A stretch of 64,000 nt of DNA from Myxococcota bacterium. Its GTDB lineage: Bacteria > Myxococcota_A > UBA9160 > SZUA-336. The DNA lies in NCBI GenBank assembly GCA_965247115.1, contig CBDFGR010000001.1:1-64000 (forward strand), read 5' to 3'. The translations under genes were made by a program, and so were the position numbers. Of this stretch, positions 1,354-41,934 are shown in pieces; the stretch's first letter is position 1, and each line of letters begins with the position of its first letter. The notes beneath the pieces were generated by a model. The model saw nothing but the letters and a program-made list of their open reading frames with translations, did not search any database and was not told the origin of the DNA.

Positions 1354-1403
1354 GCGGACTCCGAATCCGCCGGTCGCCGGTTCGATCCCGGCCGCGCTCA
1401 CCA
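1354..1403 (+). other. 3' half of tRNA-Arg(CCG); att core candidate
   Basis: GCGGA-CT-CCG-AA-TCCGC anticodon arm, GCCGG-TTCGATC-CCGGC T arm, CGCGCTC-A-CCA; no D arm or 5' acceptor strand; overlaps integrase stop codon. Confidence 0.85.
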
Positions 1404-2672
1404 TGGAACGCCCGCGACGTTGCTAACAGTTTCTGCAATGTCGCCAGGAGCGTGTTGGTCTGAAAACCCCGAGTGTCCGCTTTGTGGACGTTTATTGGGC
1501 GCGCCAAGCCGAGCCAGCACGTCCGTCGGCAGCTCGCCATAGGCTAGTGGCGGTGTCGGCTGATACCTCTTGCGACGGATGTACTTGGTGTAGTGACGCT
1601 CCGTCACGCCCACGGACGAATGGCCCAGCTGGTCGGCGATGTGCACGAGCTCCTGACCATTCGAGAGCAGCTGGCTCGCGAAGGTGTCGCGCAGATCTTT
1701 CGGTCGCCACGCTCGAGTGGTCCCGGCACGCGCCAGGATTCTGCGCCACTGCCTCTGCCTCCAGTTGCCCTGGTCGCGCGGCACAATGACACGATCCGGG
1801 CTGGGCCGGAACTCTTGTGTGTAGAGCTCCATCAGGACCCGTCGTAGCCGCCTGGAGAGATCCACATAGCGCGTCCTCCCACTCTTGGGTGGATCACCGG
1901 GGTACATGCCTCTGGGGTTCGACTCCGAGATCTCGAGGCTGCGGCCTAGGTCGTTCTCGTCCTCTCCCCAGTTGACTGCCCGCCAGCGGATCTGCATGGC
2001 TTCTCCGATGCGCAGTCCAGCGTCGAGCATGAGCAGCACCAGCACGTGATCTTCTAGACTCTCCTCTCGGGCCGAAGCAAGGATGCGTTCGATTTCCGCG
2101 GGGTCCTCAATAGGCCGGACATGCTTCCCCGCCTCACTTAGAGCTCTGCCCTTCTTGGTCTTGTTCTCCTCCCGGATAATGGCCTGAAAGTCTACGACGG
2201 GATTGTGCGCGATGAGCCGGTGACGACGGGCTCGGCGCATAATTGCCGAGACGCTATCGAGATATCGCCGTCCCGTACTTGTCGCTCGCTTCCCCTCGAT
2301 GCTCTCTTCCCACCACCGGAGTAGCGACTCATCCGTGAGTTGAGATATCGGGATGTCGCCAAAAGCCCGGTCCAGCATTCCGCCAAGACGGAGATGATTT
2401 CTGTGGTCATCCTGCGTTGTACCTGCCAGGTTCGACATCCCGTGCTTGAGGTAGGCGGCGGCTGCGTCTCGGAAGAGGAGCTCGTCACCCTCTGGTGTGT
2501 AGCCGCGCTCTTCATACTCCAGGATGAGCCTCGACGCAGCGGCCCTTGCTTTCCCGGCGTCTTTGGTCCGGAGGGACTGACGGGGGATGAGTATCTCGTT
2601 GCCTTCTACGTACTCCACGTAGTAGTGCGCGCCACGCTTGAAGATTCGAGGGCCGTCTGCCTTACGAGACAC
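1398..2672 (-). CDS. int: Tyrosine recombinase/integrase
   Basis: DAGLRIGEA (R), PKSG (K), KDLR (HxxR variant), LGHSS...ERHY (H,Y). Confidence 0.95.
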   Translation of the reverse strand: MSRKADGPRIFKRGAHYYVEYVEGNEILIPRQSLRTKDAGKARAAASRLILEYEERGYTPEGDELLFRDAAAAYLKHGMSNLAGTTQDDHRNHLRLGGMLDRAFGDIPISQLTDESLLRWWEESIEGKRATSTGRRYLDSVSAIMRRARRHRLIAHNPVVDFQAIIREENKTKKGRALSEAGKHVRPIEDPAEIERILASAREESLEDHVLVLLMLDAGLRIGEAMQIRWRAVNWGEDENDLGRSLEISESNPRGMYPGDPPKSGRTRYVDLSRRLRRVLMELYTQEFRPSPDRVIVPRDQGNWRQRQWRRILARAGTTRAWRPKDLRDTFASQLLSNGQELVHIADQLGHSSVGVTERHYTKYIRRKRYQPTPPLAYGELPTDVLARLGAPNKRPQSGHSGFSDQHAPGDIAETVSNVAGVPW

Positions 2673-3005: not shown

Positions 3006-3183
3006 CTCTTCGCCTCGGTCTGCGAGACGGAGGCGTGTTCTCCGCTTCCTCCATCCCGTCCCATGCCTCCTTCATATGCTCGGCGCAGAGACGGAAGCCG
3101 TCGCGATCGACCAGTTGCTCGCAGTCCTCGGAGCCCTCACAGGGGACGCGGTCGACCAACTCTTGGTCGGTGGTTCGTGTCAC
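2995..3183 (-). CDS. Small Cys/His phage hypothetical protein
   Basis: GTGA overlap with recT stop; CEGSEDC...LCAEH. Confidence 0.45.
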   Translation of the reverse strand: MTRTTDQELVDRVPCEGSEDCEQLVDRDGFRLCAEHMKEAWDGMEEAENTPPSRRPRRRDGN

Positions 3184-4256
3184 CTCTGCTCCTTCAGCAG
3201 CTTCGCGATGGAGCACCCCGGGTTGTGACCGAGATCAGCCGTGCGCTCGCAGTCGGGGCAGTTGTCGCGACTCGGGTCGAAGTCCTCGGGTAGCGCCGAG
3301 AACTTCGGGCCGTCCTCGTTGGGAAGTCCCGGCTCCGGCGTGGCCTCACTGGATCCCTCACTCGGAGCCGGGCGACCCGTTGCATTCGCATCGTCAGAGG
3401 GCGTCCCGGCGTTCGCAGGCTCTGCGTTCGGTGCAGCGGGACCGCCGGGCCCCTCGGGTCCGACGATCTCAGGCTCGATCGACTCACCCGCGAAGAGTGC
3501 ACGAGCCGGGTCCGCCGTCGGAGTCTCCTCGCGCGGCGGTGTGACGTTGATCTCAAGCCTTGACTCGCCGTAGCCGGGCATGTCCTCAGCGACGGGAACA
3601 CGCCGGGTCATGTCGGCCCAGTTCCGTCGGCAGTCGCGCGCTACGGCCTTCCAGATGAGCATGTCCTTCGGGTACTTTGACCAGACGCTCGGCTCGCCGT
3701 TGCGATCCTTCTTGCCGGGGTAGAGCCCAGCCAGCATCGCGTCCTCTAGACTGAAGGTCACCTTGTCGTTCTCAGATTGACCGCGCCGCTTTGAGACGAC
3801 CCACCCCGTAAGGTTTCCATCCTCGAGCGACCCCTCGGTGCCCATCCTGAGCGACTCGCACTCTTCGCGACTCCGGATGATCGCCACCATCGCCTCGCCG
3901 GGAAGACCTACCTTCCCCTTGACGACGTGAAACATCTGCAAGCTCTGGAACGCGTCGAAGCCGATCTCTCTCCCCATCGCCATCGCGACGAAGCAGTCGT
4001 TCGGCTTGTTGCGGAAGGGCTCGGGAACCAGGCTCGAGAGGGCCGCCTGCTTCGCGAGCGCGGCGAGCTCCTTTGCGTTGGTCGGACGCAGCCCGCCCTC
4101 GCTCATGTCCGCGATCGCCCCAGTGGAATCGTCGATCGTGGCGACCCCGCGTTGCTCCTCCATCTCGGGCTTCTCTTCGCTGGAGCCCGGAGGGTGAACC
4201 TTGCAGTTTGTTCCGTGCGGGGAGCCCTCCGGGGCGTTGCAGCTCTTGCAGTTCAA
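3180..4256 (-). CDS. RecT/Red-beta-like single-strand annealing protein
   Basis: SSLVPEPFRNKPNDCFVAMAMGREIG...HVVKGK...WSKYPKDMLIWKA; downstream of recE; start (TTG 4256 or ATG 4163) uncertain. Confidence 0.8.
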   Translation of the reverse strand: MNCKSCNAPEGSPHGTNCKVHPPGSSEEKPEMEEQRGVATIDDSTGAIADMSEGGLRPTNAKELAALAKQAALSSLVPEPFRNKPNDCFVAMAMGREIGFDAFQSLQMFHVVKGKVGLPGEAMVAIIRSREECESLRMGTEGSLEDGNLTGWVVSKRRGQSENDKVTFSLEDAMLAGLYPGKKDRNGEPSVWSKYPKDMLIWKAVARDCRRNWADMTRRVPVAEDMPGYGESRLEINVTPPREETPTADPARALFAGESIEPEIVGPEGPGGPAAPNAEPANAGTPSDDANATGRPAPSEGSSEATPEPGLPNEDGPKFSALPEDFDPSRDNCPDCERTADLGHNPGCSIAKLLKEQR

Positions 4257-5155
4257 AACACGACCTCTTCGTCTCTTTCGACTCGTCGCAGCCGCCACGG
4301 TGGCAGCTCGGTCAGTAGCGTCGACGTTCCGTATCCAGGCCAGACGCCCGACTCCGTACACGCGGCGTACTCCGTCAGATGCGTGCGCACTTCACGCTGA
4401 CCCGCATCGAGAGACTCCGGCCCGGTCTCATGCGTCGCGACGATGTGCGGAGCCGCCTTCTCGATCACGATGAAGACGAACCGACGCGGCATCTCGCCGA
4501 AATGCGCGTCCATCGCCATCCGGTAGAACGCCTCCTGACGGTGGTAGCCGAAGTCTCCCATCGCTCGCGCGAACGCTTCCTTGGAAGCGAGCCGCGCCGT
4601 CGTCTTCAGGTCGACGACGATGACGTAGCCCTCGTACTCCGTGATCCGGTCGAGTCTCGCCTTGCAAAGCAGACCCGACTGCTCGTCCTCCCAAACGAGC
4701 GTGAGCTCGTTCTGCCCTGCCCCCTTCAGCAGCCGGCGCGCGAGCTCGTTCCGGTTGACCCCGTCGCGCATCGCCAAGACCAGGTTCATGTCCTGGCGCT
4801 TCAGAATCCCCTTGCCCGCGTTCTCCGCCTCGAACTCGGCCCAGATGGCCTTGTCCTTCTTGTAGCGGCGGTCGACCTTAGGAGCGACGACCCACTCGTC
4901 GTCGAACTTCTCCGGCTCGAGCACGGCGCAGTGCAGAGCGGCGCCGATGTCGAGGTGATCCTTCGGGGGCGGAGGGTGGTCGATCAGGTACTTCGCGTGC
5001 GCGGGCGTCCTACCGTCGGCGAAGTAGCTGAGCTTCGTGCTGCGGACCGCGTCGATCGCGTCGTACTCGGTCTCGGATAGGCCACGGTAGACGCCTGGCT
5101 TCGACTCTCTCGCCCATCTCTTCAGATCGCTGCGGAGAGGGGAGGAGGGAGTCAT
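4253..5155 (-). CDS. RecE/exonuclease VIII-like PD-(D/E)XK nuclease (DUF3799-type)
   Basis: IGAALHCAVLEP, CKARLDRI, VDLKTT, YHRQEAFY. Confidence 0.9.
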   Translation of the reverse strand: MTPSSPLRSDLKRWARESKPGVYRGLSETEYDAIDAVRSTKLSYFADGRTPAHAKYLIDHPPPPKDHLDIGAALHCAVLEPEKFDDEWVVAPKVDRRYKKDKAIWAEFEAENAGKGILKRQDMNLVLAMRDGVNRNELARRLLKGAGQNELTLVWEDEQSGLLCKARLDRITEYEGYVIVVDLKTTARLASKEAFARAMGDFGYHRQEAFYRMAMDAHFGEMPRRFVFIVIEKAAPHIVATHETGPESLDAGQREVRTHLTEYAACTESGVWPGYGTSTLLTELPPWRLRRVERDEEVVF

Positions 5156-32955: not shown

Positions 32956-33323
32956 GCCTGCCTCTCTCGGAGCCGCACCAGATCGACTGGGTCGATGTAG
33001 GCGAGTTCGTCCTCTGGTGCTGGCAGCTCTGCTGCTGGTACGGCGGATCGGTGACGGGGGGCTGCCGCACCGAGAGGCGGAACGCGCTTGTGGGCGGCCA
33101 CGAGAAGAGCAAGCACCAGTTCGGGTCCGGGTGGGGGGAGGCGATCGATATCGTCTTCGATACGCCTCTGGGCCGCGAGATGGCGATTCTGCGGACGCAG
33201 CGCGAGCGGCCTGAGTACCACACCTACGTCGGCGAGCACTACGAGCCGACGCGGCTCCACGTTCAGGGCTGGAAGTACGGGGAGACGCCGCACAGCCGCG
33301 CGCTCTTGCTCGAACTTTCCTGA
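32952..33323 (+). CDS. Peptidase M15A-type endolysin candidate
   Basis: VTGGCR..RNALVGG..KSKH...EAID...RLHVQ. Confidence 0.75.
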   Translation: MSLPLSEPHQIDWVDVGEFVLWCWQLCCWYGGSVTGGCRTERRNALVGGHEKSKHQFGSGWGEAIDIVFDTPLGREMAILRTQRERPEYHTYVGEHYEPTRLHVQGWKYGETPHSRALLLELS

Positions 33324-33334
33324 AGGGACATAAT
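33306..33334 (+). promoter_or_regulatory. Putative sigma70 promoter of the RAPP-leader/TonB receptor operon
   Basis: TTGCTC-N17-CATAAT. Confidence 0.5.
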
Positions 33335-33357
33335 CCGCGCTTGCGTCGGGCGAGGGT

Positions 33358-33726
33358 GTGCGGGTGAACTCAGCGCTGAGGGTCCGGGAAAGCTTCCGGC
33401 GATGTTCGCTGGTTCTCGCCCTGCTCCTGGCGCAGAGCGGCTCGCTAGCCCAGGTCCACGCAGCGAGTCACGCGGAGCCCCCAGCCCTCGGGGCCGTCGC
33501 TCCGGGCGAGTTGCCGGGCAACCCACCCGTCGGTCACAACGAGCAGAGCTGCTCGGACTGTCTGGCGGGCTCGAAACTCGCCTCCGCCGCCCTCACCAGT
33601 TCGGCGAGCCTTGGGCAGCCGTGCGCGGGCGGCGCACCGATCGCCGCCGACCCATGGGCGACCCCCGAAGCCGCCCCGGATTTAATCCGGCGGCCCCGAG
33701 CTCCTCCGGCGAAGCGCCTGGCCTGA
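33358..33726 (+). CDS. DUF2946-like leader protein (signal sequence, CxxC, C-terminal RAPP)
   Basis: LVLALLLAQ; HAASH; HNEQSCSDC; RPRAPP. Confidence 0.8.
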   Translation: MRVNSALRVRESFRRCSLVLALLLAQSGSLAQVHAASHAEPPALGAVAPGELPGNPPVGHNEQSCSDCLAGSKLASAALTSSASLGQPCAGGAPIAADPWATPEAAPDLIRRPRAPPAKRLA

Positions 33727-33845
33727 TCCGGCGGCGCCCCGCGCGCCGTACCGATCTCGCCCCGACCCGCCCCGAGGGGACCCGTGCGCGCGGTGTGCAC
33801 CGGTTCCGCCGGGGCCAGCGCCAAGGCCCGAGGAGCTTGGAACGA

Positions 33846-36050
33846 ATGAGAGTCAAGAGCCGACGCAATCCGTTTATCGCCCCGCTGCGCGCAATCGCCG
33901 CCCTGGGCGTCCTGTGCTGCACGGTCGCGCCGTTACCCGCGTGGGGCCAGGAACCGACGCCCGCCGCCGGAACGCCACCCACCTCGACCCACGGCTCGCA
34001 CGAGCCAATCGAAGAGATCGTCGTGACCGCTTCGCCGCTGGGTCGCGACGAAGCCAGCACGACCACGGCGATCAACGTGATCAGCCGGAATCATCTTCTG
34101 ACGCACGGCGGCTCCACGCTGGGCGAGGCCCTGGCTTCCGAGCCCGGAATTTCCACTTCGGGCTTCTCCGCGGGGTCAAGCCGGCCAGTGATTCGGGGAC
34201 AGTCCGGCATCCGCATCAAGACGACCGAGAACGGCCTGGGCACGGCCGACCTGGCCGCCATCAGCCCCGACCACGGGGTGCCGGTCAACCTGCTCATGGC
34301 CCAACGGATTGAGGTGCTGCGCGGCCCTTCGACGCTGCGATACGGCGGCACGGCGATCGGCGGTGTGGTGAATGTCCTGATCGACCGGGTGCCGAGCCGG
34401 GTCCCCCCAGGCGCTCTGAGCGGGGAGATCCTGGGCGCCTGGGGCAGCGCCGCGGAGCGCCGGGACGGGGCGTTCCTGCTCGACGGGGCGCTGGGCCGGC
34501 TGGGCTTGCACATCGACGGCGCGAAATGGCGTTCCGAAGACTACGAAGCCCCAGGTGCGAAGGTGCGCAACTCCCAGACCGACGGCTCCGCGTTTTCCGG
34601 CGGCCTGGCCTGGCTGGGCGATGGTTTCCGCCTGGGAGTTGCACGCTCGAGTTTCGAGAACGAGTACGGCGTCCCGGCGGGCGAGCACGTCATCGACCTG
34701 AGCAAGGACGTCTGGCACCTGGAAGCCGACTGGCTGGAGCCGGTTCCGGGCCTGTCTCGGATTGAACTGCGGGGGGCGTTCTCCGACTACGAGCACAGTG
34801 AGTTCGAAGGGGACCTCCAGGAGTCGGATTTCGATTCCGACGTATCCGAGCTGCGCATGGAAGTCCTGCACGAACCCCTGCTGGAGTCGGGGTCGCTGCG
34901 CGGGGCGCTGGGAGCGCACTACATTCGACGCAAGTTCGAAGTCACCAGCGAAGCCGATCCCTTCCTGGAGCCCAGCCGCACCGATACGTGGGCCCTGTAC
35001 GCGGTCGAGGAATGGCTGTTGTCCGATCGACTGACCGCGGAACTGTCGGCCCGCCTGGAGCGCGTCGAGATCGAAGGCTCGCTGCCGGGGGTGGCGCGAT
35101 GCGACCAGCGCTTCAACCCCTTCAGCGCCTCGTTCGGGCTGGTGTATCGCCCCGCCGACGGGGTTTCGCTCGCGCTGCGGGCCTCCTCCACGGAGCGCGC
35201 CCCCGACGCGACTGAGCTGTATTACCGGGGTGAGCATCACGCCACGGGAACCTACGAGATCGGCGACCCCGACCTGGACCTCGAACGGGCGGACGCGGCC
35301 GAACTCACGCTTCGCGTCCGGCGCGGGCGGTTCTCGCTCACGACCGGTCTCTTCTACACGAACTACAAGGACTACATCGACCTGACGGCCACGGGCCGGA
35401 TGATCGCCGACAAGCACGGCCACGACCACGGAGAAGAAGAGGAGCACGACGACGAGGACCATGACGAGGACGAGGATCATGGGGACGAAGACCATGACGA
35501 GGACGGGGATCACGACGAAGAAGACCACGAAGAAGGCGAGGAACACGACGATCACGAAGAAGAGGGAGACGGGCACGACGAGGGCGGGCTGATCGAGGCC
35601 GAGTTCCTGCAGCAGGACGCGGTCTTCTACGGCGGCGAACTCTGGCTCGACTACAATCTCTTTGAGTGGGCCGGGATCGAGTTCGGACTGGACGCGCAGT
35701 TCGACGCGGTGCGCGGCCGCCTGGACAGGGGAAACGTCCCGCGCCAGCCGCCCTTCCGCTACGGAGCGGGGCTTCACTTCCGCGGCGAACGCTTCGACGG
35801 GCGCGTCGGCTTCCTGCGCCACGCCCGCCAGAAGCGCACCGGCGCGCTCGAGACGTCGACCGACGCCTACACACTGTTGGAAGCTTCCCTCGCCGTGCGG
35901 CTGATCTCAGCGGGGAACCGCTTGCTGGAACTGGATCTGAGCGGACGCAATCTGCTCGACGAGCGCGCCCGAAACCACCTGAATTTCCGCAAGGACCTGT
36001 TCCTGCTGCCCGGGCGGTCGATCCGGGTTTTGCTGCGCGGGCGCTTTTGA
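33846..36050 (+). CDS. TonB-dependent receptor, ZnuD-like, with a His/Asp/Glu-rich loop
   Basis: EEIVVTA TonB box, SRPVIRG, RIEVLRGP plug, C-terminal F. Confidence 0.92.
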   Translation: MRVKSRRNPFIAPLRAIAALGVLCCTVAPLPAWGQEPTPAAGTPPTSTHGSHEPIEEIVVTASPLGRDEASTTTAINVISRNHLLTHGGSTLGEALASEPGISTSGFSAGSSRPVIRGQSGIRIKTTENGLGTADLAAISPDHGVPVNLLMAQRIEVLRGPSTLRYGGTAIGGVVNVLIDRVPSRVPPGALSGEILGAWGSAAERRDGAFLLDGALGRLGLHIDGAKWRSEDYEAPGAKVRNSQTDGSAFSGGLAWLGDGFRLGVARSSFENEYGVPAGEHVIDLSKDVWHLEADWLEPVPGLSRIELRGAFSDYEHSEFEGDLQESDFDSDVSELRMEVLHEPLLESGSLRGALGAHYIRRKFEVTSEADPFLEPSRTDTWALYAVEEWLLSDRLTAELSARLERVEIEGSLPGVARCDQRFNPFSASFGLVYRPADGVSLALRASSTERAPDATELYYRGEHHATGTYEIGDPDLDLERADAAELTLRVRRGRFSLTTGLFYTNYKDYIDLTATGRMIADKHGHDHGEEEEHDDEDHDEDEDHGDEDHDEDGDHDEEDHEEGEEHDDHEEEGDGHDEGGLIEAEFLQQDAVFYGGELWLDYNLFEWAGIEFGLDAQFDAVRGRLDRGNVPRQPPFRYGAGLHFRGERFDGRVGFLRHARQKRTGALETSTDAYTLLEASLAVRLISAGNRLLELDLSGRNLLDERARNHLNFRKDLFLLPGRSIRVLLRGRF

Positions 36051-36217
36051 ACCCGGCCGGATTGGACAAGCCGCCGCGGCACCGCCGATAATCGGGTGCC
36101 TCGGCGGCCTCGGCGCGTCCCGCGCCGCTCGGACGCTACGGCGAGCCGGGGAGAGAGGGCCTGACTGGCACCACCACGATTTTCACTCAGGTCGCCGCGG
36201 GAACGGCCGCGGTTTAC

Positions 36218-36928
36218 ATGGCGCTGCTGCTCGTCGGTTGCACCTATCGGGTTCCGCTTCCGGTGATTCGGGAGGGTGAGCCCAGGAACATCGAGTACCG
36301 ACAGCTCGAGGTAGACGACTTCTGGGGCACTCCTTGGGGGGACTGCTTGGCGTTCACGTCCACGCACCTGAAATTTCGGCCAACGGAGCCCCCGATGGCT
36401 TACGAGCACAACGCCGATGGTGGCGTGACCGCAAGGATTGACGACGGGTTCGAGGTATACGCGATCATGGATCGAGCCATGTCTTTTTGGCACGTCCTAA
36501 AGGTCATTAGAGCAGAGCGAGAACAGCCAGAATATCGACGAGGCAGAAGAGCCGTTCCGACAGGAGAGAAAGGGGCTGGGAAGCTCTCCGTGCTCGAGCA
36601 TGAGCAGGGACACTTCGCTCTAACCGAGATCGCGGCCAGGCTGCTCACGAAGAACATGATGGTGCTTCAGGGCTCCGGTGCAACGGAGACGGAAGCCTCG
36701 GACGCATTGTGGAAGGAGAGCAATCGCGAATACGCGAAGGTCAGGGAAGGACTGAGTTCCGGCCACGAGAAGTACGACCTCGAATCGAACATATGGAATT
36801 GGATCCCTGACAACCAGTGGGAGTGGAGCCCTCACAACCAGAGGGAGTGGAGCCCTCACAACCAGAGCGTCTGGACGGAGTACTTCGATAAGAGACTGCG
36901 CATGACGGACGGCAATGGAGTGCGCTGA
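36218..36928 (+). CDS. DUF922-like Zn-dependent protease, lipoprotein-like
   Basis: LLVGC; VLEHEQGHFALTEIAAR; C-terminal EWSPHNQ x2. Confidence 0.7.
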   Translation: MALLLVGCTYRVPLPVIREGEPRNIEYRQLEVDDFWGTPWGDCLAFTSTHLKFRPTEPPMAYEHNADGGVTARIDDGFEVYAIMDRAMSFWHVLKVIRAEREQPEYRRGRRAVPTGEKGAGKLSVLEHEQGHFALTEIAARLLTKNMMVLQGSGATETEASDALWKESNREYAKVREGLSSGHEKYDLESNIWNWIPDNQWEWSPHNQREWSPHNQSVWTEYFDKRLRMTDGNGVR

Positions 36929-36991
36929 AGCCCACCCCCGGGCCTGCGTACTATGAACAAACTTTCCTCGCGTTCACAGGTCATAGATCGC

Positions 36992-37180
36992 TCAGAAGAA
37001 AGCTTTCACGACTGTCGCCGCAATCGCCGCTGCGACCGCGATGCCGCTCAGAACTCCGCCCAATATCCAGACCTTCAAATTGCTGATGTCGGTCTTGGTT
37101 GCGATGTTCTTATCCCTATTTTCCTGGATGGCGACCACTCGCTCATCTATCCGAGCAAGTTGCACCTCAAGTGCTCTCAC
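36992..37180 (-). CDS. Small coiled-coil plus TM protein
   Basis: LEVQLARIDERV...ATKTDISNLKVWILGGVL. Confidence 0.5.
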   Translation of the reverse strand: MRALEVQLARIDERVVAIQENRDKNIATKTDISNLKVWILGGVLSGIAVAAAIAATVVKAFF

Positions 37181-37272
37181 TTGGAAGCGCCTACTCGGGC
37201 TACACGACCCGGGTACTGGCCGATGAACGCACACGCCTCTCTGTAGGTGACTGGCTGCAATTCGAGGCTCAC
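37177..37272 (-). pseudogene. Truncated start of a phage accessory gene (XF1762-like N-terminus, tentative)
   Basis: MSLELQPVTYREACAFIGQY then an early stop; preceded by 19-bp motif. Confidence 0.4.
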
Positions 37273-37323
37273 TCCGACGATTCTTCGCCGACGGGATGGA
37301 TGCCCGACGCACTCGGCCACTCT

Positions 37324-37632
37324 TCAGCCTGCTCCGATTTTTCGACCGATCTGCGTCGGAGATGCTCCCATCGCAAGGAGCGCACGCACGAGCAGATCAA
37401 TCGTTGCTTCTCCCTTCTCCAGTTTCGCTACACGTGGCTGGCTCGATCCCATTCGAGCTGCAAGCTGCGTCTGGCTCACTCGTCCTTTGGCTCTCTTCTC
37501 CTTCACTGCCTTTGCGAGGGCGACCTTCATCTCGATGAATGCCATCTCGCTGTCCGAGAGATCCAGGAGTTCCTGAACCGTCCCGATCTGCCAGCCGTCG
37601 GCCTCAAGGGCCTCCAGTTCCTTCTTCTTCAT
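37324..37632 (-). CDS. XRE-HTH antitoxin (HigA-like)
   Basis: VSQTQLAARMGSSQPRVAKLEKG; downstream of toxin. Confidence 0.85.
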   Translation of the reverse strand: MKKKELEALEADGWQIGTVQELLDLSDSEMAFIEMKVALAKAVKEKRAKGRVSQTQLAARMGSSQPRVAKLEKGEATIDLLVRALLAMGASPTQIGRKIGAG

Positions 37633-37716
37633 GGGTGAGCTTCTTCCTGAGTTGGGGGGGCTGGACCTGGATCCGTTGGGGGGGACCTTCAGTCCATCGC
37701 GGGTCTCAGTCGAGAC

Positions 37717-38073
37717 CTACCGTGTGCTGCCTCTCCTCTTTGCTTCGTCATAGCGCGCGAGGCGCTGTTTGGTTGTTTCGATGACGCCCTTGGGGGTCCG
37801 CTTCGTATCCTTGTCGAACCACTGGATCACCACGATCCGGTCGGCGTCGATTCGGTAGAGAATTCGCCATGTCGCCTTCGCCTTTTCGTCCTTGATTCGA
37901 AGCTCATGCACCCTCCGCCCGATCGCGGGCATCGGCCGAGAGTGGGGCATCGAGAGCGACTCGCCTTGCTGCAGTTGCCGGAGCAGGAACCCTGCCCATA
38001 GGCGAGCTTCCTGACTCATCGGCGGTGTGTGCCATTCTGCGGCGAGCCAAGCAATCGGCTTGTCCTCTGCCAT
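37717..38073 (-). CDS. RelE/HigB-like toxin (Gp49/DUF891 type)
   Basis: MPHSRPMPAIG..VHELRIKD...WRILYR...FDKDTKRTP. Confidence 0.88.
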   Translation of the reverse strand: MAEDKPIAWLAAEWHTPPMSQEARLWAGFLLRQLQQGESLSMPHSRPMPAIGRRVHELRIKDEKAKATWRILYRIDADRIVVIQWFDKDTKRTPKGVIETTKQRLARYDEAKRRGSTR

Positions 38074-38082
38074 ATGCCGAGA

Positions 38083-38110
38083 ATGATATACCTATTTCGG
38101 TATATGTCAA
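38083..38110 (-). promoter_or_regulatory. TA promoter with operator inverted repeat
   Basis: TTGACA-N16-TATCAT; ATATACC-N6-GGTATAT at 38086-38105. Confidence 0.75.
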
Positions 38111-38208
38111 GGGGTTGGCTGCCCGTCATTACTTCTGTTTGGGAATTATCCCTGAAACTTTCCACGCCCGAGCCGCCAGCGCTTCGTCTCCGACGGTTTG
38201 CGAGGTCA

Positions 38209-39165
38209 CTACGGTCCGATCAGCAAGGCTGTGGTGTTTACGTTGAAGCGATGTGTTTCGAGTTCACCTTCAAGACGGTATTTGGCAAGTTCAAGGTAAG
38301 CTGGCTCAATCTCGATTCCTATGGAATTCCGGCCCATGTGCATCGCAGCGATCAGGGTTGAACAGGTCCCGACAAATGGGTCTAGTACAGTATCCCCAGC
38401 GAACGAAAACATGCGGATCAGGCGCTCAGCAACTTCCGTGGGATAGGGCGCCGGGTGTCCGTTCCGCGTCGAAGCCCCTTTAATGTCCGTCCACGCCGAC
38501 TTGAACCAGCTCCGAACCTCCGCTTTGGTCAGCATCGAGAGTGCCTGTTGCTCGGCGGACGGCGAGCGGTAACCTGCTCCCTTCCTGAAGAACAGAATGT
38601 ATTCCACATCATTCTTAATCACGCCGCCGGGCTGGTAGGGCTTTCCGTAGTAGCGCGCCCCGTTGCCGCTCGCCTCTTGGAGGCCGTTAGAGATCTTGTG
38701 CCAGAAGATCGGCGTAAGACAGTCCAGACCCAGCGCGCGGGATCGGACCTGAATATCCGCATGTAACGGCACGACGTAGTGTTTCCCGTTCTTTTTCCTC
38801 GACATACACACGTCGCCGACCACGCAGCAGATCCTCCCACCTGGCACCAACACGCGCTCACACTCGCGCCATACGCGATCTAGAGACACCAGAAACTGCT
38901 CGTAATCTTCTATATCGCCAAGCTGGTCTTTGGCAGCGGGATGCTTTTTCAACGTCCAGTATGGCGGGGATGTGACAATCAGATGTATGGAGCCCGCTTC
39001 TATCTGATCCAGCTTTCTCGCGTCGCCCAGGTGGAGCGTGTGTGTCGTCTTATCGAACGGCTCCGGCCACTGGCTATCCCGATGTCTCTGGTTGGCCTCA
39101 AGCAGATTTTCGAGGCTTCCAGATTTCTCCCGAACCGGGTCATAGACATTGAGCGGCTCGTTCAT
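38209..39165 (-). CDS. Beta-class N4C/N6A DNA methyltransferase (orphan)
   Basis: TSPPY motif IV precedes HPAPYP and DPFVGT motif I. Confidence 0.92.
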   Translation of the reverse strand: MNEPLNVYDPVREKSGSLENLLEANQRHRDSQWPEPFDKTTHTLHLGDARKLDQIEAGSIHLIVTSPPYWTLKKHPAAKDQLGDIEDYEQFLVSLDRVWRECERVLVPGGRICCVVGDVCMSRKKNGKHYVVPLHADIQVRSRALGLDCLTPIFWHKISNGLQEASGNGARYYGKPYQPGGVIKNDVEYILFFRKGAGYRSPSAEQQALSMLTKAEVRSWFKSAWTDIKGASTRNGHPAPYPTEVAERLIRMFSFAGDTVLDPFVGTCSTLIAAMHMGRNSIGIEIEPAYLELAKYRLEGELETHRFNVNTTALLIGP

Positions 39166-40232
39166 CGTTCGCCTTCTTGACTGACGGGATGGATGCCCGT
39201 CTGCAATCGCGAGCTCAGCACTCGGAATGCCCTCGCAGCCACAGCCGGTACGACTCCGTTACCGAGGCAGCGCAATCGGTCCATCCGAGAGGGAACCCCA
39301 TCAGCCACTCGACCCATGTCGGGTTCAGTGAGCCACCAGCCATCGCCGGAAGATCCGGGCCGTTCGTTCTTGCCCGCTCCTTCGCCGCCCCCTCCGGGGT
39401 CCTGCGCCCCTTGATGCTGTCGGCTGCTCGGGGCGTCGGCCACACCAAGACCACCTCGCTCAACGGTCGAGCATTCGTCCCGATCAGATTTTGCTTCGCG
39501 TCGCCTGCGGTCGGCGTGGGCCATCTCCCATTCCGCGCCATCGTCTCCAGGCTCTCGCGCACCGGACCCACCCGGCCCATCCCGCCGCCCTGATTCGTCC
39601 CGTAGGTCTGGGCGCTGGGCGTCGGGAACATCCTGACGGCATTTTCCAGCCCGACTTGGCGCTTCCCCTTGTCGGTCTTTCCTTTCGCCAGAATGTCCTC
39701 GGGCTTCATGGTCCGTCCCCCGTTTGGCACGCCGGGAGTAGGCCAAGATGAAGACGCGCCGCCTGAGGTGCGGTGCTCCGCTTCCGGCTGCACTGAACAC
39801 ACTCCACTCCGCATCGAACCCGAGCCCGGCCAGGTCTCCGAGAATGTGTCCCAGCCCGTGACCAAGGAGGCCTGGCACGTTCTCCAGGAACACGTAGCGG
39901 GGTCCCACCTCGCGAACGATGCGGGTAATGTCGGGCCAGAGCCAGCGGTCATCGTCTACGCCCCGCTGGTCCCCGGCCACGCTGAACGGCTGGCATGGGA
40001 AACCGGCAGAGATGAGAGCCACCTCACCGCTAAAGAGGCTGCTTGGGAAGGTCGCGAGATCGTCCCAGATAGGCGCGCGATCCAAGGCCTGGTCTTCCAT
40101 CCGCGCCACGAGACAGGCCGCTGCGTAGGCGTCCCGCTCGCAGTAACCCATACAGCGATACCGTGGTCCGAGGGCAAGCTTGAGTCCCAGCTCAAGTCCT
40201 CCAACTCCGGCACATAGAGCCACACCGTTCAA
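39162..40232 (-). CDS. C5-cytosine DNA methyltransferase
   Basis: CAGVGG, GFPCQPFS, ENV, HLRRRVF, LGNGVV; TTG start overlaps upstream TGA. Confidence 0.92.
   Translation of the reverse strand: MNGVALCAGVGGLELGLKLALGPRYRCMGYCERDAYAAACLVARMEDQALDRAPIWDDLATFPSSLFSGEVALISAGFPCQPFSVAGDQRGVDDDRWLWPDITRIVREVGPRYVFLENVPGLLGHGLGHILGDLAGLGFDAEWSVFSAAGSGAPHLRRRVFILAYSRRAKRGTDHEARGHSGERKDRQGEAPSRAGKCRQDVPDAQRPDLRDESGRRDGPGGSGAREPGDDGAEWEMAHADRRRREAKSDRDECSTVERGGLGVADAPSSRQHQGAQDPGGGGEGAGKNERPGSSGDGWWLTEPDMGRVADGVPSRMDRLRCLGNGVVPAVAARAFRVLSSRLQTGIHPVSQEGER
39215..39952 (-). CDS. Overlapping alternate-frame ORF with WPTP repeats inside the C5 MTase
   Basis: WPTP x3, FPTP, LNPTWVEWLMGFPLGWTD. Confidence 0.45.
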   Translation of the reverse strand: MTAGSGPTLPASFARWDPATCSWRTCQASLVTGWDTFSETWPGSGSMRSGVCSVQPEAEHRTSGGASSSWPTPGVPNGGRTMKPEDILAKGKTDKGKRQVGLENAVRMFPTPSAQTYGTNQGGGMGRVGPVRESLETMARNGRWPTPTAGDAKQNLIGTNARPLSEVVLVWPTPRAADSIKGRRTPEGAAKERARTNGPDLPAMAGGSLNPTWVEWLMGFPLGWTDCAASVTESYRLWLRGHSEC

Positions 40233-40618
40233 TCTCCCTCCGTACCGACGGGATGGATGAACGTCGGTCGAACGTACCGGAGCGGATCGATCAGCTCCCT
40301 CATTCGCTTGTAGCACTTGGGAGCCATCCGGAATCGAGCCTCCTCGTGGTAGAGAGCAGCGAGTTCGTACCAGTGCTCCGCCAAGGCGCCCCAGACTGGA
40401 TCAAGCGCCTCCATCTCGGGTAGCCGTTCCTTCCACTCTGGGAACCTCTCGAGGAGTCGCAGGCACCGGCCCAAGTCGTCGGGATCAAGAGGGTAGGCGC
40501 AGGCGTCGGGGTCCTCACGGTCGGGATCAATCCCGGCCATGTATCGAGCGAGCGCCATCGACGACATGCCCGTATCCCTACCCGCCATCCACCGCATGAC
40601 CTCGCGGAGATCAGCCAT
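40229..40618 (-). CDS. Phage hypothetical protein
   Basis: WMAGRDTGMSS...YPLDPDDLGRCLRLL..FPEW. Confidence 0.75.
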   Translation of the reverse strand: MADLREVMRWMAGRDTGMSSMALARYMAGIDPDREDPDACAYPLDPDDLGRCLRLLERFPEWKERLPEMEALDPVWGALAEHWYELAALYHEEARFRMAPKCYKRMRELIDPLRYVRPTFIHPVGTEGD

Positions 40619-40877
40619 TGTCTCGACAAGCGGGATGGATGCCCGTCATTGGACCATCGCTTCGCGTAGGTCCGCAGACACGCCGATGCTCTTCGACAGG
40701 GATGTCGAGTGCCCCCAAGATCCATCGGCGGGTGCGGAGCTGGGGTCGATGCCAGCCGCGCTCGATGGCGCGGACGGTGGACCAGTGGACACCAGCCCGC
40801 TCGGCCAGTTCCTCTCGGGAGAGCAGCCGTGTCTCGCGTTCGTAGCGTAGATCGTTGGGGTCGCCGTTCGTCGTCAT
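40611..40877 (-). CDS. XRE-family HTH protein (ORF open to 40958)
   Basis: LSREELAERAGVHWSTVRAIERG. Confidence 0.8.
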   Translation of the reverse strand: MTTNGDPNDLRYERETRLLSREELAERAGVHWSTVRAIERGWHRPQLRTRRWILGALDIPVEEHRRVCGPTRSDGPMTGIHPACRDNG

Positions 40878-40954
40878 GGAATGTCCGATTGACTGCCCGG
40901 GTTGGCTGCCCGTCTGCAATTGCGCCTCTTCCGGTGTGGGCTCCTGATCTGTCA

Positions 40955-41278
40955 TCACTTCTCCTCCTGACCCACGCTGTGGGCACCCGTCGGCGCACAG
41001 TCAGCGACAGTCAGGCCATCGGGAAAGATGATGTGCTCGGGGTCCTTGAAGTGGAACAGCCCGTAGCCGTTGCAGTGACACGCCCAGGAGATGCCGATGT
41101 CACCACGGAACTCCAGCATCTCCATGCCCTTACGTTTCTCACAGAGGCGCCCGCACATCTGGATCGCGACGCACTTTCGCTCGTTGGTAAGCTCAAACTT
41201 CTTGGGTGCTGGCTCCGGAAGCTCTGGCAGATCCGGACCGCACGCGACGAGCACGAGGGCGAGCAAGGTTCGCTTCAC
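40955..41278 (-). CDS. Cys-rich lipoprotein
   Basis: MKRTLLALVLVAC lipobox; GAGGAG RBS. Confidence 0.7.
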   Translation of the reverse strand: MKRTLLALVLVACGPDLPELPEPAPKKFELTNERKCVAIQMCGRLCEKRKGMEMLEFRGDIGISWACHCNGYGLFHFKDPEHIIFPDGLTVADCAPTGAHSVGQEEK

Positions 41279-41312
41279 TTTCCCTCCTCAGGAACGCCGG
41301 GATGGATGACCG

Positions 41313-41657
41313 TCACCACCCCATCCCCACCGTTGTCTTGATCCGCTCCCGCGCCTGGTCGTGCAGGTAGTCGTGCTTGAGGTCCATCCCGAGGCCTCGG
41401 CGGCCGAGCTCGATCGCGACCTTCACAGTCGTCCCCGATCCGACGAATGGATCGAACACAAGCCCGCCGGCCGGACAGCCCGCGAGGATGCAGCGCTTCG
41501 CGAGCTCGGTGGGGAAGACGGCCATGTGCGCGCCGTGGTAGGGCTCTGTGGCCAGGCTCCAGACAGTGCGCGCCCGCGAGTCCCTCTGCGCGTGCTGGAT
41601 CTTGCGCTCGCGCTGGTCGGCCAGAGGAATCGCTCGAGCGTCGCCACGGACCAGCAC
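41313..41657 (-). pseudogene. Internally deleted N4/N6 DNA methyltransferase
   Basis: GDARAIPLADQ joined to TVW...HMAVFP...DPFVGSGTT; no SPPY/DPPY motif. Confidence 0.75.
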
Positions 41658-41820
41658 TCAGTCTCCTTGACCCGCGGGTTGGCTGCCCGTCAGGCGTACC
41701 GCTCGAAGGTGGCGGCTGTAGCTGGAGAGTTCGGGATCTTCGAGGACCTGGTTGACTGTCTCGTGCACGCGTCGTCGCGGCTCCGTCGGCAACTTTGCGA
41801 GTGGTCTCTGTCGCGTAAGT

Positions 41821-41891
41821 GCCCGAGAACATTGGCTTGATGTAACCCATACACGCCAACGTAGCGGGTTCAAATCCCGCCCCGGGCACCA
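41821..41891 (+). ncRNA. D-arm-less tRNA-like element or tRNA 3' att remnant
   Basis: GCCCGAG/CCCGGGC acceptor, GCGGG-TTCAAAT-CCCGC T arm, ACCA. Confidence 0.55.
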
Positions 41892-41934
41892 ACAACCAAA
41901 GAGGCGGCGGCGAAGGACCCCACCTACGGTGGTC

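Follow-up and report, generated by a model that had tools for sequence, protein, structure and literature searches.

An array of accessory genes punctuated by a palindromic site

The window analysed here is a 64,000-nucleotide stretch of a Myxococcota bacterium genome (assembly GCA_965247115.1, contig CBDFGR010000001.1, positions 1 to 64,000 of the forward strand). Between its positions 37286 and 41695, a row of minus-strand accessory genes is punctuated by copies of a short palindromic site. Comparison of this array with six others (A to F) in the same genome showed that the site is a real feature and that genes have been exchanged at its copies. The features of the window are as follows, with strand in brackets; att denotes a phage attachment site, and lengths of proteins are in amino acids (aa).

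41864..41892 (+), att copy, the last 29 nt of tRNA-Leu(UAA); the array begins 173 bp from it and points away
41669..41695 (-), site m8, 27 bp, spacer CAGCCAA; exchange point, with other upstream genes in arrays B and C
41313..41657 (-), N4/N6 DNA methyltransferase cassette with two internal deletions; intact (330 aa) in arrays B and F
41292..41318 (-), site m7, spacer CATCCAT; in array B its left half meets the right half of m1
40955..41278 (-), cassette for a 107-aa putative lipoprotein that reads through the next site; no Pfam, PHROG or NCBIfam match
40969..40995 (-), ninth site, spacer TGCCCAC; no exchange observed
40892..40918 (-), site m6, spacer CAGCCAA; followed by another gene in array F, and in array B its right half is joined to the left half of m1 with a 10-bp deletion
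40611..40878 (-), XRE-type helix-turn-helix (HTH) protein cassette; its open frame reaches 40958 through m6
40625..40651 (-), site m5, spacer CATCCAT; no exchange observed
40229..40618 (-), 129-aa phage protein (phrog_1229), its final 9-10 residues supplied by the following cassette
40243..40269 (-), site m4, spacer CATCCAT; bounds the C5-methyltransferase cassette on its left
39162..40232 (-), C5 cytosine methyltransferase cassette, 1064 bp from site to site; not in arrays A, B and D
39179..39205 (-), site m3, spacer CATCCAT, with perfect inner arms
38209..39165 (-), 318-aa N4/N6 DNA methyltransferase cassette, common to arrays A, B and D
38105..38131 (-), site m2, spacer CAGCCAA; overlaps the -35 box of the promoter below
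38083..38110 (-), match to a sigma70-type promoter, TTGACA-16-TATCAT (11/12, a consensus match only), before the toxin-antitoxin (TA) pair
37324..38073 (-), TA pair: Gp49/RelE-like toxin (37717-38073) and HTH antitoxin (37324-37632)
37301..37322 (-), end bases of a deleted DUF5131 gene, running into m1; the same as the end of DUF5131 in array B
37286..37312 (-), site m1, spacer CATCCAT; seemingly split into two hybrid junctions in array B
3180..5155 (-), RecT-like annealing protein (3180-4163) and exonuclease VIII (4253-5155), the enzymes of an alternative explanation considered below
1354..2672 (-), tyrosine integrase (1398-2672) with a tRNA-Lys-type att core (1354-1403), a candidate enzyme only

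The cargo named in an initial annotation was confirmed: its methyltransferases are one C5 and two N4/N6 enzymes (one of the latter internally deleted), its TA pair is of Gp49/HTH type, and the HTH protein is present; the lipoprotein call is based on the sequence itself, and family searches returned no match. The C5 methyltransferase region (39162-40316, -) also holds a nested second long open reading frame (ORF; 39215-39952) in another frame with a phrog_1008 methyltransferase match, as in two-chain enzymes.

Anatomy and specificity of the site

The eight 19-mers from which the array had been proposed were all recovered, on a single strand and with two spacers. A search of the window with the 19-mer pattern (up to 3 mismatches) gave nine matches against 0.11 expected, a number reached by none of 100 shuffles; the nine were these eight copies and one weak opposite-strand match at 33513. 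The weak site-like sequence at 33509-33535 (+) has a perfect right arm, lies 190 bp past the last lysis gene of the neighbouring prophage and has no ribosome-binding site behind it. A further site at 40973-40991, with spacer TGCCCAC, had been overlooked, and the statement that there are only two spacer classes holds for the eight copies alone: across the genome the spacers include CATCCAT, CAGCCAA, TACAGAC, TCCCAAC, GAAGACG, TAAGACA and TGCCCAC.

The arms, first described as 6 bp, measure 10 bp. The full element is a 27-bp 10-7-10 palindrome with the consensus GACCGACGGG-N7-CCCGTCGGTC on the gene strand (from copies with distinct flanks), followed directly in the consensus by A(A/G)GAG-like ribosome-binding bases. 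The arms are inverted, the spacer is 7 bp and asymmetric, and every site has the same orientation; the sites were collected with a fixed spacer length of 7. Arms stay near the consensus across eight or more different spacers and unrelated genes. Seven copies precede minus-strand start codons as proposed, at a measured gap of 10-18 nt rather than 11-19 nt, and the eighth (38109), said to abut the TA promoter, in fact overlaps its -35 box.

In 20 of 27 distinct sites, one open frame crosses the site and stops 31-40 nt after the first inner base. Its stop falls on or beside the next start codon, and 11 predicted cargo genes end in this way. The tail of the 129-aa protein, for example, is -IHPVGTEGD in the window and -IHPVSQEGER in array A, as set by the following unit.

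Within the genome (three contigs, C1-C3, 5.17 Mb), the motif is specific to the arrays. A spacer-masked profile, trained on the sites and run on both strands, gave 28 matches above 18 bits in the 28.7 kb of arrays and 1 in the remaining genome. All 12 genome matches to the consensus pattern with up to 2 mismatches fell in arrays, as did 16 of the 22 at 3 mismatches, one of the 22 being tRNA-Lys(UUU). The chromosome-wide dispersal of repetitive extragenic palindromic (REP) or bacterial interspersed mosaic element (BIME) repeats, a REP-like character having been named at the outset as what would refute the proposal, is thus not what we found, with 28 of the 29 top profile matches in arrays.

Outside this genome the motif was not found, which does not imply that it is absent there, since close relatives of this genome may be missing from the searched collections and 33 of 64 parts were covered in the second metagenome scan. 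An exact 16-mer had just two single matches in 40 relatives, each within a coding gene; an exact 17-mer occurred in 12 stretches of viral contigs, none with an array; and 10-7-10 patterns (viral and metagenome contigs) and a 24-mer (genome contigs) had no match. Array DNA compared with 225 genomes of the class gave nothing beyond short or ~70% gene-level matches, and in profile scans of 1.23 Mb and 0.35 Mb around relatives of cargo and lysis genes no locus exceeded two weak matches. The 10-7-10 pattern at 3 mismatches was about as frequent as a reversed control in three genomes (G001, G002 and G004), tRNA arms excepted.

Gene content changes at the sites between arrays

Genome-wide, a curated list holds 40 copies of the site (27 distinct, flanks included) in seven arrays, that of the window and these:

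C2:133.7-138.3k, array A
C2:235.4-240.3k, array B
C2:761.9-763.5k, array C
C3:1176.4-1183.1k, array D
C3:2390.7-2391.9k, array E, preceded by a broken integrase gene
C3:2564.5-2568.8k, array F

The arrays carry near-identical cargo genes in differing orders, and gene content switches exactly at sites, as the initial annotation had required of cassette shuffling. Arrays A, B and D lack the 1064-bp C5-methyltransferase unit and have the left part of m4 joined to the right part of m3; array F has other genes after m6 and before m4; and a 403-bp unit of array F is missing in array D. No exchange was observed at m2, m5 or the 40973 site in the seven-array comparison. We collected the ends of blocks of at least 40 bp shared between arrays, excluding region ends and insertion sequence (IS) edges. 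Among 31 distinct block ends, 11 fell inside the 27-bp sites, which make up 4.3% of array length (p 3e-8), and behind these 11 we count about nine separate in-register site-to-site exchanges.

Five junctions have both parents in the genome. Numbering the left inner arm 0-5 and the spacer 6-12, their crossover intervals are 5|6-18|19, 5|6-16|17, 1|2-7|8, -3|-2-5|6 and -3|-2-24|25. The intervals are 6-27 bp wide, and the single point common to all five is 5|6, the border between left arm and spacer. Exact identity at the junctions is 6, 8, 11, 13 and 27 bp; the fourth junction used an 8-bp window and left an adjacent 18-bp exact run to its right unused. Equal spacers were joined at three of the five and different spacers at two.

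Array B is a rotation (circular permutation) of the order in the window, A and D. It reads DUF5131, [m1-left/m6-right], HTH, 129aa, MTase318, X, m8, MTase, [m7-left/m1-right], and next the gene found after m1 in the window. Its two ends are thus the left and right halves of m1, whereas the window still has an intact m1 into which the end of DUF5131 runs. Different spacers meet at the m1/m6 junction, with a 10-bp deletion. A rotation within a split m1 is the outcome expected of a single circle insertion.

Short-read contigs from runs X1 and X3 (one sample, perhaps the genome's own source) end at 37283, 37322, 38141, 39195, 40247, 40898, 41298 and 41327, which are the branch points found by array comparison, and single contigs cover 33246-37283 and 39213-40276. 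Because they break at the same places, the junctions are not a long-read misassembly. Runs X5 and X6, from two other studies, contain a 98% version of the array's first methyltransferase (17 differences over 995 bases). A collapsed site precedes it, as in array A, and DUF5131 follows it directly, with no site in between. Versions lacking sites therefore exist, and a gene can gain a site through a join at its stop codon.

The arrays lie in different prophages

Every array sits within a prophage or remnant, and six of the seven begin within ~300 bp of an att copy or tRNA end, pointing away from it. After excision, the array would come immediately downstream of the phage's integrase gene, across the phage attachment site (attP). 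The att types of the array-bearing elements are tRNA-Lys type, Gly, Sec, Leu-UAG and Leu-UAA, and head genes differ among the window, B and F elements (from ORFs called and clustered in this analysis). Lysis, recombination and accessory modules at 88-99% identity are common to at least eight prophages or remnants whose head modules differ, and mismatched att pairs in several prophages point to rearrangements between prophages. One phage gene (5152-5973) has a variable run of Ala-rich 12-bp repeats that reaches ~1 kb in one prophage, with copies at C3:804k, C3:1214-1215k, C3:2608k and C3:2638k.

At the start of the window lies a prophage that has the 1398-2672 integrase, RecT, exonuclease VIII, terminase, portal and capsid genes and extends to 33323. 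Host-like single-copy genes, including that of a TonB receptor (33402-36928), stand between it and the array; a His/Asp/Glu-rich repeat loop of this TonB-dependent receptor (35406-35586) suggests a metal transporter. The initial annotation had suggested a recombination test with the 1398-2672 integrase. The core of that integrase is of tRNA-Lys type, and the att copy beside the array belongs to tRNA-Leu(UAA), whose IS-broken integrase we located with the tRNA at C1:278-279k (integrase C1:278.5k). In the same-genus genome G002, this tRNA precedes the host genes that here follow the array, in the orientation of the window's att copy. Because the adjoining att is the 3' end of tRNA-Leu(UAA), matched in position and orientation in G002, the array is most likely the att-side end of a later-rearranged tRNA-Leu prophage, outside the 1398-2672 integrase's own element. 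The tRNA-Leu(UAA) gene (C1:279037-279340) holds a group I intron, and the neighbouring integrase (C1:278466-278933) is cut by an IS.

Site-specific recombination as a proposed mechanism of exchange

Judged from sequence comparison, we give about an even chance to the reading that the 27-bp sites, at which whole accessory-gene units have been exchanged and reordered among this host's prophages, are cleaved by a tyrosine recombinase where arm and 7-bp spacer meet. A unit consists of spacer, right arm, ribosome-binding site, gene and left arm. Recombination between two sites would release units or blocks of units as circles, which would then integrate at a further site, in most cases one whose spacer is the same, and new units seem to arise through ordinary illegitimate joins just outside the site. 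Since the open frame runs across the site to end at the next start codon, an in-register swap would preserve translational coupling.

The enzyme would probably be a trans-acting phage integrase of the kind that targets tRNA anticodon arms. All 10 positions of the consensus arm agree with the bases directly 3' of the anticodon loop in the host's tRNA-Lys(UUU), a likeness noticed after the fact, and 8 of 10 agree with the corresponding flank in tRNA-Lys(CUU), which serves the window integrase as its core. For a random genomic 10-mer, the frequency of a full match to any anticodon flank is 3.4e-4 and that of a match of at least 8/10 is ~7%. The exact tRNA-Lys(UUU) string occurs in 4 of the 225 genomes of the class, three of them in this genus. 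The action of a tyrosine recombinase at the site, the 1398-2672 integrase included, is a candidate whose sole link to it is this likeness of the arm to tRNA-Lys anticodon-arm cores.

The window-type integrase has four near-identical copies in the genome and a 7-bp overlap, which changed once from CTCTTAA (the tRNA-Lys(CUU) loop) to CTCCGAA. It has also integrated outside tRNA genes, at poorly armed sites carrying the new overlap (loci concerned: window 1354-1403, C3:5939-5988, C2:279331-279380 and C2:235392-235417, with an empty site near C3:678475). The overlap change and the poor-arm sites show this integrase to be tolerant.

A more far-reaching account, which we regard as rather unlikely as a whole, is that phages copied the anticodon-arm core of a host tRNA-Lys as a symmetric inter-gene site across attP, making a tRNA-targeting integrase a cassette shuffler. 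The 7-bp spacer would serve as the address, and swaps would keep coupling and supply the C-terminal tail of the preceding protein. The result would be an equivalent of the integron derived from a bacterial attachment site (attB) and shared by unrelated phages of one host.

Several observations weigh against recombinase action. Neither within nor beside any array is there a dedicated recombinase, and the scanned array genes have no recombinase domain. Att types differ across arrays, so that the arrays have no one integrase in common. No att copy of tRNA-Lys(UUU) occurs in this genome, nor does an integrase lie beside this tRNA in the three relatives sharing its sequence. Many copies of the site retain just 3-7 of the 10 arm bases. 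RecE/RecT or Sak4/SSB/Cas4 modules are present in these prophages, and single-strand annealing across a whole imperfect site can also give a join at the spacer edge. One different-spacer pair is mismatched at both spacer ends, and even the mismatch-tolerant IntDOT (PMC2817482) would not be expected to accept such a pair. Among the 31 block ends, 20 are off-site, 8 of them within ~10 nt of a site edge and 12 far away, mostly at internal deletions. Within the gene-boundary zone the in-site share, 11 of 19, is no different from the share by length (p 0.17), so that position alone does no better than a general gene-boundary effect; that effect does not explain the in-register joining of two sites. 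Finally, the site-less methyltransferase of X5 and X6 implies that cargo moves and works without sites too.

Searches for other enzymes in the genome gave no alternative recombinase. The integron integrase model TIGR02249 had 28 matches, none above its 265-bit cut-off (best 78.4 bits; window integrase 35 bits), no serine resolvase was found beside arrays, and the 32 PF00589 matches were XerC/D, element integrases and fragments. We considered small stand-alone tyrosine recombinases (C3:696-697k, C2:2115-2117k, C3:1214k and C2:782k) and set them aside as broken or partial, with no adjacent site. One of them, with copies at C3:696137-697023 and C2:2115-2117k, lacks an arm-binding domain and is followed by an inverted repeat, one copy being frameshifted and the other split. 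We also rejected the reading of the motif as arm-type sites, as the arm-type repeats of the window integrase near att differ from it in sequence. A dif candidate lies at C1:264056-264083, near the C1 GC-skew maximum, with dif-like copies at C2:30222, C2:2098947 and C3:650471; its right arm is copied exactly at C3:2564728-2564738, beside a junction in array F.

Alternatives to a site-specific recombinase

A strong rival, somewhat less probable in our view, is that the site binds a dimeric regulator before each accessory gene (as operator, stoperator or start element) and that RecET or Sak4 uses it as a short homology; the shuffling would then be real yet need no site-specific enzyme. The inner 6-7-6 spacing suits an HTH dimer. 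The site is the sole sequence common to all units, and the same homology role has been proposed for the promoter early stem-loops (PeSLs) of T4; the prophages carry the RecE/RecT and Sak4/SSB/Cas4 modules that would do the annealing and no dedicated recombinase. Exchanges between equal spacers would be expected here too, since such sites share most identity. In the first unit after att, the right half of the site, which adjoins the ribosome-binding site, is better kept than the left, and deletions repeatedly halt 9-14 nt before a site, fitting selection to keep it. Enzymes of the RecET/Sak4 type tolerate divergence (PMC3945230). The efficient minimum for Red-beta, however, is quoted as 23-27 bp in that report, and four of the five junctions, with 6-13 bp of exact identity, fall below it, while one join bypassed the longer 18-bp run.

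An XRE-type HTH gene is present in three of the seven arrays and absent from four, sequence search found no homologs of the array HTH protein, and the repressors of these phages differ. Repressor operators were examined by eye and rejected, the palindromes around the window prophage repressor being AT-rich and unlike the site. There is a single promoter match in the whole array, unlike in PeSLs, and an operator would have no evident reason to match a tRNA anticodon flank at 10 of 10 positions.

That the site acts as an RNA hairpin on downstream translation, an option raised in the initial annotation, is improbable. The consensus is able to form a 10-bp stem with a 7-nt loop, and the tie to start codons and translational coupling stands, with the frame open through 20 of 27 sites to the next start and the 11 cargo genes ending there. 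The pairing pattern does not support a hairpin. Among 270 arm pairs, which are not independent since copies share ancestry, 158 are Watson-Crick, 22 G-U, 23 A-C and 67 other, with no strand bias, and 5 of 25 double changes in the arms are compensatory. This lack of G-U bias and paucity of compensatory changes favour recognition of double-stranded DNA over an RNA stem. Folding energies are also similar for both strands, and several copies have just 4-6 Watson-Crick pairs. Two related ideas were rejected. Position 2 of the tRNA anticodon loop is a conserved U, and most spacers lack it, which argues against anticodon-loop mimicry as RNA; and third codon positions are among the most conserved while the encoded residues vary, which argues against a conserved C-terminal peptide signal.

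Duplicated neutral copies of a single ancestral junction between genes, or artefacts of assembly, are a highly improbable source of the pattern: the prophages are decaying, share long near-identical stretches and hold contig ends within their copies, but this explanation is already largely refuted by arms that stay near consensus despite eight or more spacers and unrelated genes, by the specificity of the motif, and by short-read contigs, which branch at the same points and extend across junctions of the window itself.

Discussion

The usual explanation for gain, loss and reordering of phage accessory genes is recombination of an illegitimate or a relaxed homologous kind. In this genome, parents and products of exchange can be seen together, in seven arrays of phages with different head modules and integrases and one common exchange site. 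The sites are confined to prophage accessory arrays, and their junctions run in register from site to site. If an integrase acts on them, phage integrases would hold a second role as cassette shufflers, and a spacer-addressed, frame-preserving site would offer a ready-made design for assembling genes in modules. Should RecT or Sak4 act, the arrays would be a clean natural case of recombination steered by less than 15 bp of identity. With a 27-bp site and a handful of candidate genes, the choice between enzyme and annealing is directly testable. In a literature search that left most subscription papers outside its reach, we found no description of this site or of a cassette site derived from a tRNA arm.

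The layout of two inverted arms around a 6-8-bp asymmetric spacer is that of tyrosine-recombinase core sites. The anticodon loop and stem form the classic 7-bp overlap and core of tRNA-targeting tyrosine integrases (PMC8371274), and these cores, like that of IntDOT (PMC2817482), share with our site the inverted arms and 7-bp overlap; here, the arm is a tRNA-Lys anticodon flank. Unlike integrase cores, which comprise one attP and one attB, the site occurs in many symmetric inter-gene copies, with no adjacent arm-type repeats and a varying overlap.

The start-associated sequences (SAS) and extended SAS (ESAS) of cluster K mycobacteriophages (PMC3203893) are similarly placed. They too have one orientation, lie a few bases before the starts of non-structural genes, show an outer GGG-N7-CCC symmetry with inverted repeats thought to be protein-binding, and are not in the host chromosome. 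In SAS, the Shine-Dalgarno sequence is within the loop of a 13-bp motif, 3-7 bp from the start, whereas here Shine-Dalgarno-like bases follow the right arm; ESAS has 17-bp arms with variable spacing, and the available passages of that report do not describe gene exchange at SAS or ESAS.

PeSLs (Arbiol et al. 2010, PMC2839356) are likewise repeated elements between small accessory genes, and recombination between copies deletes or moves genes and yields chimeric elements. In these lytic T4-type phages, the element is a cassette of promoter, Shine-Dalgarno sequence and stem-loop, crossovers fall after the -10 box and before the start codon, and mini-circles were demonstrated, whereas the circles proposed here are inferred. 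Unlike PeSLs, our site is a 27-bp two-armed palindrome with a 7-bp spacer, free of promoter and terminator, in temperate phages. Between 36800 and 42000 there is 1 promoter match (0.8 expected), and none of 5 terminator matches is at a site.

The sites of pdif modules are XerC/XerD sites of 11-6-11 layout, with two different arms and a 6-bp spacer. As in the pdif modules of Acinetobacter plasmids (PMC13141974), short two-armed sites here bound modules and the enzyme would be encoded elsewhere. Rearrangements at pdif favour identical or near-identical spacers (PMC13141974), compared with equal spacers at 3 of 5 junctions and different ones at 2 of 5 here. Unlike pdif, the site is 10-7-10 with identical arms, all copies are direct, and it is unrelated to the host dif candidate at C1:264056.

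Integron attC sites are about 55-140 bp, with R and L boxes and a bottom-strand hairpin. The initial annotation's term 'integron-like' fits the behaviour of the arrays, in which co-oriented units are exchanged at sites. Like integrons and clusters of attC sites lacking an integrase (CALINs), including those of phages (PMC9892861), they consist of tandem, mostly promoter-less units bounded by sites, with an adjacent integrase/att platform, TA and methyltransferase cargo, and reordering. The term does not fit as membership: there is no IntI in the genome, the 27-bp sites have neither attC R/L boxes nor strand-biased pairing, and genes are read through them. The site thus resembles integron cassettes, pdif modules and PeSLs in behaviour and departs from each in a defining feature. 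The arrays are a new form of site-guided cassette shuffling, so far in one genome only.

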